A stretch of DNA of 64,000 bases from a virus, in the UHGV virus genome UHGV-1483955; one strand, written 5' to 3'. Made by a program: the position numbers and the translations under genes. The notes under the pieces are model-generated. The model worked only from the letters and a program-made list of their open reading frames with translations. It had not been told where the DNA came from and searched no databases. Of this stretch, positions 2,325 through 4,549 are shown one piece after another; position 1 is the stretch's first letter; every line of letters starts with the position of its first letter.

Positions 2325-4339
2325 AAGAGCTGTGCTATGGATCTGTTTGCAGTGGAATTGAAGCCGCGAGTATTGCCTGGGAACCGTTGGGTATGCGTCC
2401 GGCGTGGTTTGCTGAAATCGAGCCTTTTCCATCTGCCGTTCTTGCGCACCGCTGGCCCCATGTCGCCAACCTTGGCGACATGACAAAACTTGCCAAAAAA
2501 GTCCTGGCTGGGGAAATCGAATCCCCTGATGTGCTCGTCGGGGGTACGCCTTGTCAGGCATTCAGTATCGCGGGCTTACGTGGTGGGCTTGATGATGAAC
2601 GCGGCGCGCTAACTTTGAAGTATGTGGAGCTTGCAAATGCAATTGACGACAAACGGTCTGAGTCCTTCCTCAAACCGACAGTTATCGTCTGGGAAAATGT
2701 CCCAGGAGTCCTGTCATCGGCAGATAACGCCTTCGGATGTTTCCTTGCCGGATTGGCTGGAGAAGATGCGCCATTTGAACCAGGTGATCGACCTGAATCA
2801 GGAAAAAGTAACGCGTTCTGGCGGTGGGATGGCAAAACCGGTTGCCATGCTCCAAAGTGGCCGCAGTGTGGTTGTATTTATGGACCGCAGCGAAAGGTGG
2901 CCTGGAGAATCCTTGATGCCCAATACTTCGGAGTGGCACAACGACGCCGACGCGTGTTTGTTGTCGCAAGTGCTCGAACAGACCTCGATCCCGCAACGGT
3001 ACTTTTTGAGTTCGAAGGCGTGCGCCGGAATATTGCGCCGAGCAGAGGCGAGGGGAAGGAAACTACCAGATATACTTCAAACATCGCTATCAGATCTTGC
3101 GATGATACAAACATAGTTGCCATGGCACATGGGCAAGGAGGGGCTGAGATAAAAACCGATAATTCGGCACCAACTTTGACATGTAACCATGAAGCACCAA
3201 TTGTATTGCTCGTCGACGGTAGAATGCGCCGTCTTATCCCTGTCGAATGTGAAAGGCTGCAAGGTTTTCCTGATGGACATACATTGATCCCTACGGAAAA
3301 GCGTAAAAAAGTTTCTTCAGATGAACTGGCATACCTTCGCAAAAACTATCCTGATTTGAGCGAAGAAGAGGCCGCGATGCTTGCAGCTGACGGACCGCGT
3401 TACAAAGCGATCGGCAATAGTATGGCGATACCAGTAATGCGCTGGATTGGCGATCGGATTGCCAAGGCTGCATGTCGGCAGAAGGAAGGGAGTGAAACAA
3501 AAGAGCGAAAAGTTAAACCAGCGGCAGAATTCGAACGGTCCATATTCAAATGGGCTGGTGGAAAATTTGGTGTTCTGGAACAAATCTTTCGCTATTTGCC
3601 AGAAGGGAAGCGCCTGATTGAGCCTTTCGTTGGTGGCGGAGCTGTCTTCATGAATGCCGGATACCAGGAAAATCTGCTAAATGATGTGAATGCTGACCTG
3701 ATTAACTTTTACAAGACTCTGCAACGCGAGGCGCATTCACTTATCACTCTGGCACATCGTTTCTTCCAGGACTACAACACGCAGGAAGGATACCTGGCAG
3801 TACGGAATGCGTTTAACAAACAAGTCTATGATGATTTACATCGCGCAGCGGCGTTTTTGTTCCTGAACCGACATTGTTTTAACGGATTGACGCGTTACAA
3901 CCAAGCCGGTGAGTTCAATGTCGGTTATGGGAAGTATAAAACTCCGTATTTCCCATTGCAGGAGATGGAAGCCTTCCTTGGTGCGGAAGGGCGTTCTGAG
4001 TTTGTATGTGGTGATTTTGCTGCGGTGATTGAAGCTGCCGGAGAAGGAGATGTCATCTTTTGTGATCCGCCGTATGAACCGCTCCCAAATACAGAGGGAT
4101 TCACGAACTATTCCGGTCATGACTTTAAGTTTGAAGAGCAAAAACGCCTGGCGTCTCTGTTGACGGATGCTCATCGCCGAGGTGCAAAGGTTCTCATTAC
4201 TAACAGTGGCGCGCCAAACATCAGAGAACTTTATCAGGACAGTGGCTTCAGAGTGGAACCTCTTTTTGCCAGACGTTCTGTGTCTTGTAAGGGGGACACT
4301 CGAGGTGTTGCTCATGACGTTATAGCAATATTGCTCTAA
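2321..4339 (+). CDS. dmt: bifunctional DNA methyltransferase: N-terminal C5-cytosine MTase fused to C-terminal Dam-like N6-adenine MTase
   Basis: N-terminal PCQ (GGTPCQAFS) and ENV (WENVPGV) motifs; C-terminal [16 protein letters not shown] AdoMet motif and DPPY; GTG start overlaps rdgC stop. Confidence 0.9.
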
Positions 4340-4346
4340 TAAATTT
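4330..4346 (+). promoter_or_regulatory. C1 operator (perfect consensus ATTGCTCTAATAAATTT) overlapping a sigma70-like promoter (TTGCTC -35, 17-nt spacer, TAATAT -10)
   Basis: Exact 17-mer across the dmt stop codon; -10-like hexamer at 4354-4359. Confidence 0.75.
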
Positions 4347-4523
4347 ATTAGTGTAATATCGCATCAATGAATCGTGATTTATAGAGCGATTTAGCTGTTA
4401 GCCGCGACAGGCGCGGCGGCAAGTATGGCGGGGTAGTGACTCCTTCCCCCTCATGACGCCGAGTTGCCAGGTTGACCATACGCCTAAGTGGCAACACCGA
4501 AGTGCGTTACGAGCTTCCAGTTT

Positions 4524-4549
4524 GCCCATCTTCGGGTGGGCGTTTTTTT
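4524..4549 (+). terminator. intrinsic terminator (GCCCATC-TTCG-GGTGGGC plus T7 run)
   Basis: 7-bp GC-rich stem, tetraloop, then GTTTTTTT. Confidence 0.7.

Follow-up and report, generated by a model that had tools for sequence, protein, structure and literature searches.

The region considered here, positions 4330-4549 of the viral genome UHGV-1483955 (64,000 nucleotides (nt), one strand; this whole stretch is hereafter called the window), has its closest described counterparts in the ban control region of phage P1 and in the dicF locus of lambdoid prophages. On the same bases, the P1 RefSeq record NC_005856 annotates a sigma-70 promoter, P1ban, a predicted promoter, P2ban, and two monovalent operators, Obana and Obanb, which are joined in the divalent operator Obanab ("former Op72ab; controls expression of ban"); the P7 record carries equivalent operator annotation. 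On the strength of this remark on ban control, and of the P1 literature, we take Pban to be repressed in vivo by C1 (with Bof). Approximately 100 nt downstream of the operators, the P1 record places a misc_feature named "dicF-like region", which aligns to ~4462-4559 of the window. As to DicF itself, its 3' end is produced by Rho-independent termination and its 5' end by RNase E cleavage, and read-through transcripts of the locus continue to dicB (PMC9438474; PMC5069750); the RNA binds Hfq, and substantial termination has been reported at the dicF terminator (PMC5069750). A further system that bears on the region is put of phage HK022, a ~70-nt antiterminator RNA of two stems (PMC9378689).

Compared with these systems, 4330-4549 is the known Op72/Pban region of P1 together with the known "dicF-like region", being as a finding ordinary and not new. 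We read it as the control region and the first RNA cassette of the P1/P7 ban operon, which would serve as a small-RNA gene and as an attenuator, and we give this reading a probability of about 0.65.

Operators, promoter and leader

Over positions 4300-5014, the window shares 98.5% identity with P7 and 96% with P1; judging by this similarity, it belongs to a P1/P7-type phage. An earlier note, made from the sequence alone, had described a perfect C1 operator overlapping a sigma70-like promoter at the end of dmt, and the operator of this description was confirmed by the operator scan of the window, which found the operator ATTGCTCTAATAAATTT without mismatches and an inverted second operator with two mismatches overlapping it; arranged in opposite orientation, the two form a divalent operator (Table 1). 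Altogether, 15 C1 operator sites with at most three mismatches are present in the window, as against 0.24 expected by chance. The promoter hexamers proposed in the same note, TTGCTC (-35, 4331-4336) and TAATAT (-10, 4354-4359) with a 17-nt spacer, are present as well and coincide with those of the annotated P1ban. The bases of operators and promoter are identical to those of P1 Op72ab/Pban and occupy the same place, at the end of dmt and upstream of trnA and trnT; no substantive difference was found, the window having a P7-type allele of leader hairpin 2 and a shorter dmt gene. By annotation, the divalent operator Op72ab overlaps P1ban, which would thus be silent in the lysogen, and the start site is predicted near 4366. 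Another C1 operator, with one mismatch, lies at 1054-1070 upstream of uhr-hrdC-dmt and corresponds to P1 Odmt (former Op68).

The leader that would be transcribed from this promoter was described in the earlier note as GC-rich, folded into hairpins such as GTTGCCA/TGGCAAC, and closed by a tetraloop terminator with a run of seven T residues, all of which is borne out. GC makes up 54% of 4366-4523 and 62% of the conserved module described below, as against 49% of the whole window; the quoted heptamers pair as hairpin 3 of that module; and the terminator stem GCCCATC-TTCG-GGTGGGC (4524-4541, -12.8 kcal/mol) is followed by T7 at 4543-4549. The 5' end of the leader, 4366-4396, is predicted to form a hairpin of its own, and its conservation is confined to P1-like phages. 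In the Rfam search made for the leader, tRNAs were the only families matched, the weak matches (CcsR1, RyhB, Ysr49, nuoG and miRNAs) being at chance level.

The three-hairpin module and the body behind it

A BLAST search of phage genomes found positions 4402-4499 to be ~80% identical to unannotated DNA of many lambdoid phages. In phage Tritos, the homologue of this segment, termed here module A, stops ~25 nt ahead of the annotated DicF RNA within the ydfA-ydfB-ydfC-dicF-dicB operon, and by sequence similarity module A is homologous to the 3' untranslated region (3'UTR) of ydfC just upstream of dicF. The view of the leader in the earlier note was thus right as to its structure, and it had overlooked both this homology and the "dicF-like region" label of the P1 record.

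Viral contigs were scanned with the sequence of the hairpin 3 loop, which yielded 88 distinct loci with module A. All 88 of them have, within ~100 nt downstream of module A, a short body of RNA and a hairpin that is rich in GC and carries a U-run; the body is canonical DicF in 64 loci, of the P1 type in 13 and of other types in 11. Since the bodies vary behind module A among these loci, the part common to P1 and the lambdoid prophages is a conserved structured scaffold and not DicF, and the terminator-ended small RNA behind it is exchangeable. The consensus fold of module A was obtained from an alignment of 17 sequences, in which 96% of the cells are paired on the consensus structure and four compensatory pairs occur, whereas column shuffles gave 0.8 and sliding of the partners 0-2. 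Variation in the 19-nt hairpin 3 loop is confined to two positions, so that this loop is essentially invariant. P1 and the window differ mainly in hairpin 2, and this difference is itself compensatory (CGGGG...CCCC vs. CUGGG...CCCAG).

The succession of three-hairpin module, short body and Rho-independent terminator that is partly read through is common to the window and the dicF locus of the lambdoid early-left operon, a dicBF operon of the Qin/Kim type, and module A (4401-4495) is indeed followed in the window by the terminator at 4524-4549. The setting of the module differs: in P1 the module A cassette begins ~35 nt after its own repressor-controlled promoter, whereas the homologue of lambdoid prophages forms part of the 3'UTR of a protein-coding gene, with the promoter over 1 kb away.

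The divergent body of the window occupies the position of DicF in lambdoid prophages. That it is DicF was ruled out by the DicF covariance model (Rfam RF00039), which gave no match in the window either with E values up to 10 or at the gathering score, and detected the positive control, the Tritos locus (L003 1622-1673), with 72.5 bits. Among P1-like contigs, hardly any variation is seen in the segment 4496-4549, including in those with a diverged module A. The P1 body shares the string CAGTTTGCCCAT (cAGTTTGCCCAT) with one variant body, that of the lambdoid locus L130, and by this resemblance it seems to be a diverged relative whose terminator stem is made from a portion of what was once the loop. 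When ftsZ (-60..+30) was tried as a target of the P1 body 4500-4549 with RNAduplex, admittedly a crude test, no complementarity beyond that of shuffles was found: the duplex reached -24.0 kcal/mol as against a shuffle mean of -29.4, with 182 of 200 shuffles at least as good, while the DicF/ftsZ duplex (-38.9 vs. a shuffle mean of -32.8) was better than most shuffles. The ftsZ target was rejected on these grounds, and the P1 small RNA probably does not act on this gene. No literature linking P1 to DicF function was found.

Non-DicF bodies also stand behind module A in a number of lambdoid prophages (L148, L180, L130, L165, L205, L211, L143 and L213), where differing loops are carried inside a similar GGCGG...CCGCC terminator hairpin. 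As far as their sequences go, these bodies suggest that small RNAs resembling DicF form a family whose members differ in target.

Table 1. Features of positions 4330-4818 of the window and of the hairpins further downstream.
Feature	Positions	Strand	Remarks
C1 operator Op72a (Obana), perfect 17-mer	4330-4346	+	0 mismatches; Obana in P1, Op(ban[a]) in P7
C1 operator Op72b (Obanb)	4341-4357	-	2 mismatches; Obanb in P1 annotation
Sigma-70 promoter P1ban	4331-4359	+	same bases as P1ban of NC_005856
5' end of leader with predicted 5' hairpin	4366-4396	+	RNAfold, -7.0 kcal/mol
Module A, conserved three-hairpin RNA module	4401-4495	+	~80% identity to lambdoid phages; consensus fold and covariation
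Module A, hairpin 1	4402-4406/4412-4416	+	consensus fold
Module A, junction helix	4417-4420/4458-4461	+	consensus fold
Module A, hairpin 2	4430-4433/4446-4449	+	consensus fold
Module A, hairpin 3	4463-4469/4489-4495	+	GTTGCCA/TGGCAAC; loop 4470-4488
Divergent short body, in the position of DicF of lambdoid prophages	4496-4522	+	no Rfam DicF match
Intrinsic terminator	4524-4549	+	7-bp stem, UUCG loop, U7; best terminator-like site in 3800-7600
Module B, unannotated structured RNA like the mRNA-like half of transfer-messenger RNA (tmRNA)	4551-4729	+	covariance model, 145.9 bits; outside 4330-4549 but abutting it
Variable segment inside module B	4567-4575	+	UUAGCGAC
Tag-like frame without start codon	4611-4643	+	GCA AAC GAT GAT CTG ATG ATG GTA GCG GCC TAA, i.e., ANDDLMMVAA and a stop codon
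X1, first of four long inverted-repeat hairpins	4731-4818	+	arms CACAACAGGTAAGRGY ... RCYCTTWCC(T)GTTGYG
Further long inverted-repeat hairpins	5170-5247, 5385-5452, 5868-5947		same arms as X1

Small-RNA gene, attenuator or antiterminator

The reading of 4330-4549 as a small-RNA gene and attenuator builds on the operator, the promoter, the terminator motif, the homology and the RNA structure, each of them observed here or annotated in P1. Once C1 repression is lifted, RNA polymerase would start near 4366 and transcribe, one after another, the 5' hairpin, the three-hairpin module, the short divergent body and the strong intrinsic terminator. If the analogy with DicF holds, a fraction of the transcripts would end at 4549 as a ~185-nt RNA, which would perhaps be trimmed by RNase E to a short, terminator-ended small RNA of the Hfq type, and the remainder would read through and carry a tmRNA-like RNA, the tRNAs, tciABC and ban; the cassette would thereby act as a small-RNA gene and an attenuator at once. 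Read-through of the 4549 terminator must occur, because Obanab is annotated as controlling ban, which lies ~2.6 kb downstream. The start site, the efficiency of termination, the processing and any trans-acting role are what we infer in this scheme.

The alternative offered in the earlier note, a C1-repressed small RNA or an attenuating leader, was a reasonable one in the light of the homologous dicF locus, which does both (PMC9438474; PMC5069750). The transcription unit that it assigned to the leader, tRNA/upl/plp/ban, is partly wrong, since plp and upl are annotated on the opposite strand and cannot form part of it; nor do the tRNAs come directly after the terminator, since the next element there is the tmRNA-like RNA, module B.

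Several observations weigh against the small-RNA and attenuator reading. P1ban is weak by consensus, its hexamers agreeing with it at 7 of 12 positions, below the call threshold of the consensus promoter scanner. The folding energy of the whole leader is modest (minimum free energy -65.8 kcal/mol, z = -1.6 vs. shuffles) and not significantly beyond that of shuffles, so that the case for leader structure is one of covariation and comparison, not of thermodynamics. A processed product of DicF size is not obvious, because the distance from module A to the terminator stem is only ~27 nt and the sole RN↓WUU-like RNase E motif (CAG↓UUU) lies at the foot of the terminator. The P1 transcriptome literature that we examined contains no mention of 4330-4549. 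Finally, P1-like contigs without module A carry the same or a similar hairpin and U-run directly before module B, and one unrelated contig has a different hairpin and U-run in the same place; the functional partner of the terminator may be module B and not a dicF-like small RNA.

The hairpin and U-run retained without module A equally suit a pure attenuator or insulator, in which the terminator would only set the read-through into the ban operon, the terminated RNA would be functionless and module A would be a recombination passenger from a lambdoid prophage. Seen from the promoter, all genes of the operon do lie beyond the terminator, and the lack of detectable complementarity of the P1 body to ftsZ is in keeping with a functionless RNA. 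A passenger, however, is hard to reconcile with ~80% conservation of module A between P1-like and lambdoid phages, with its compensatory changes and with its invariant 19-nt loop, and the near-invariance of 4496-4549 in P1-like contigs despite the divergence of module A also speaks against it; we consider this explanation unlikely.

Still less probable, in our estimation, is that module A is a cis-acting processive antiterminator RNA like HK022 put, by which RNA polymerase would be modified to pass the adjacent and later terminators. It would explain how ban, or dicB in lambdoid prophages, can be expressed past a strong terminator in the absence of an N protein, no N homologue being annotated in the early-left operon of phage Tritos, and module A is always found immediately upstream of a strong terminator that needs read-through. 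Module A is compact and multi-hairpin, is with ~95 nt of a size similar to that of put, and lies near the promoter in P1, which likens it also by position to put, a compact structure of nascent RNA after an early phage promoter and before terminators (PMC9378689). Where put has two stems, module A has three hairpins besides a junction helix, and its distance from the promoter in lambdoid prophages is large, more than 1 kb; moreover, substantial termination occurs at the dicF site (PMC5069750), and the argument is drawn from position relative to the terminator alone.

That the leader encodes a small protein is scarcely credible and was rejected, for none of the open reading frames (ORFs) that can be mechanically drawn over it, 4453-4596 (+), 4348-4497 (-) and 4398-4733 (-), is conserved among the lambdoid homologues compared: the plus-strand ATG frame of 47 codons has no Shine-Dalgarno sequence, runs across the terminator and loses its ATG in those homologues, the minus-strand frames cover modules that occur separately in other phages, and the observed substitutions are compensatory in RNA helices. 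The earlier note, too, saw no credible ORF in 4366-4523.

The tmRNA-like RNA and the hairpin cassettes downstream

The tmRNA of Escherichia coli encodes the tag ANDENYALAA and has the resume context AUA-GUC-GCA. Module B, which abuts the terminator, resembles the message-like half of such a molecule; we treat it as a lead and not as part of the claim on 4330-4549. By BLAST, positions 4553-4746 match unannotated intergenic DNA of very different phages. A covariance model built from 19 sequences has a single match in the window and one in P1 (NC_005856 68884-69062, i.e., L233 6885-7063); module B is noted as well in the loci L002, L234, L235, L236 and L237. Always in unannotated gaps, the model finds copies in five other phages, namely Salmonella phages Vi01 (Ackermannviridae) and STGO-35-1 (Caminolopintovirus), Cronobacter phage CS01 (Drexlerviridae), Escherichia phage PD205 (Schitoviridae) and Klebsiella phage ZX4. 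Temperate and virulent enterobacterial phages of at least five lineages are represented: P1/P7 (Punavirus), Vi01-like, G7C-like, T1-like Drexlerviridae and Caminolopintovirus. In one P1-like contig (L053, ~2000-2360), an element of the IS200/IS605 type has, by eye, apparently been inserted in the 5' part of module B, with the first ~40 nt gone.

The likeness to tmRNA, specifically to the coding piece of the two-piece permuted type, begins with a resume context, AUA-NNN-GCN in most members and GUA-AAU-GCA in the P1 type, and with a tag frame that lacks a start codon. This frame has exactly 10 codons in every member of the family, including those collected with a tag-independent pattern, and all members conform to A-N-[D/E/S]-[D/E]-x-x-L-x-[A/V]-A. 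In some Vi01-like genomes the peptide ANDNTFLAVA is encoded by GCAAACGATAAT... and in others by GCTAATGATAAC..., and this use of synonymous codons for one tag peptide points to selection on the peptide. The Rfam family tmRNA_permuted gives a partial match of 24 bits, which is below the threshold and confined to the tag stretch. Covariation in module B amounts to 93 double-change cells, compared with 29 in shuffles, and to 13 covarying pairs; it supports a helix with the stop codon in its loop (variants UGAU/AUCA and CUGG/CCAG), a downstream pseudoknot (CCGA/UCGG, CCAG/CUGG, CCAA/UUGG and CUAG/CUAG) and a 3' hairpin. An upstream pseudoknot next to the resume site is predicted, its stem A tentatively; stem B (helix 2) is 82.6% paired, with no compensatory pairs in the formal count and with covariation seen by eye only (CUUU/AAAG vs. 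UUAU/AUAA, L002-type rows). Additionally, the 5' segment GGUUAGCGAC of module B resembles the D-loop GGAUUCGAC of tmRNA.

Unlike tmRNA, module B comprises only ~180 nt and lacks the T-arm, the acceptor stem with G3:U70 and the CCA end. With default settings, ARAGORN found no tRNA-like domain (TLD) in the window or in 32 related loci and detected three genuine permuted tmRNAs in control loci; the acceptor pieces that it proposed at relaxed thresholds were inconsistent and were discarded as spurious, one, for example, lying inside dmt. Pattern searches of the surrounding phage DNA found no T-arm with, behind it, a strand able to pair with the 5' end of module B. The T-arm-containing hairpin of X2 type was rejected as a general acceptor partner, since it accompanies module B in 5 of 35 loci only and lacks G3:U70. 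Phage tmRNAs are on record for mycobacteriophages and Bacillus phage G, as well as, in a TLD-only form, for mycobacteriophage DS6A, and a TLD-only molecule like the latter strongly inhibits tmRNA when expressed in E. coli; the type of module B is absent from the phage tmRNAs of the tmRNA database papers (PMC4131195; PMC11915505). DS6A is thus comparable as a phage with only one half of tmRNA, the difference being that it keeps the tRNA-like half, whereas the P1-type module B keeps the message-like one. No description of module B was found in an incomplete search of the literature, and an earlier one is possible.

Tag codons 3-6 of E. coli ssrA have their reverse complement in the invariant 5' stretch AGUUUUCGUC of module B. 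In the window, 4553-4562 ((A/G)GUUUUCGUC) is complementary to ssrA 96-106 (L238), i.e., to the tag codons GAC GAA AAC U. An exact-complement scan, used in place of the unrestricted RNAduplex comparison of module B with E. coli ssrA, which proved uninformative, gave a complementarity of 9-11 nt in most members, with at least 10 nt reached in ~4% of shuffles per sequence; a pairing of module B with ssrA is accordingly suggestive as a sequence match, not significant.

It is conceivable, although we would sooner bet against it, that module B represents an undescribed class of tmRNA consisting of the coding piece only, with a resume site, a translated ANDDLMMVAA tag, pseudoknots and a D-loop-like 5' segment and without the tRNA-like 3' half, which reprogrammes or sabotages host trans-translation; the 4549 terminator would be its gate, and the C1 promoter with the dicF-like leader its expression switch in P1. 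Such an RNA might supply an alternative template for tagging, in combination with a tRNA-like piece that comes from the host or is separately encoded, or its invariant AGUUUUCGUC might pair with tag codons 3-6 of the host tmRNA.

Four long inverted-repeat hairpins, of which X1 directly follows module B, separate the RNA cassettes of this part of the window. Their arm motif has six matches, compared with 0.69 expected, and the arms covary within each copy; pairing of X arms across module B so as to enclose it was rejected, as the covariation is within hairpins and not across them. In unrelated virulent phages, X-type arms are likewise found on both sides of the tmRNA-like RNA and of tRNAs. Within the second X copy lie a canonical T-arm, GGTTCGAATCC, and a hairpin like a D-arm. 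The X hairpins may be processing punctuation, tRNA-like mini-helices or borders of mobile cassettes. Three of the four, X1 being the exception, are followed by (A/G)TGAATGC and a small hairpin (5248-5282, 5687-5710 and 5947-5970), and the copy at 5947-5970 (GTGAATGCGGCTAAGCGCACGCGG) recurs between dicF and dicB of lambdoid prophages, just past the dicF terminator. A sub-threshold Rfam match to STnc100 covers 5943-6063 (37.8 bits vs. a gathering score of 47). The P1 genes plp and upl are hypothetical minus-strand ORFs over the conserved RNA hairpin cassettes (5139-6042 of the window, with ORFs at 5293-5712 and 5713-6042) and may be mis-annotations. Relative to P1, the window has an extra cassette at 5262-5434.

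For 4330-4549 itself, little changes, the Op72/Pban control region and the "dicF-like region" having been re-identified, with the refinement that the "dicF-like" label in P1 should not be taken to imply inhibition of ftsZ. Given the invariant loop of hairpin 3, 19 nt long, the scaffold is a candidate element of biogenesis or antitermination and is as such relevant to the DicF system. The larger potential value lies in the adjoining module B rather than in 4330-4549, and P1, as a standard laboratory phage, allows direct testing: should module B work as a tag template or antagonize tmRNA, manipulation of ribosome rescue and protein tagging would be common to many enterobacterial phages.

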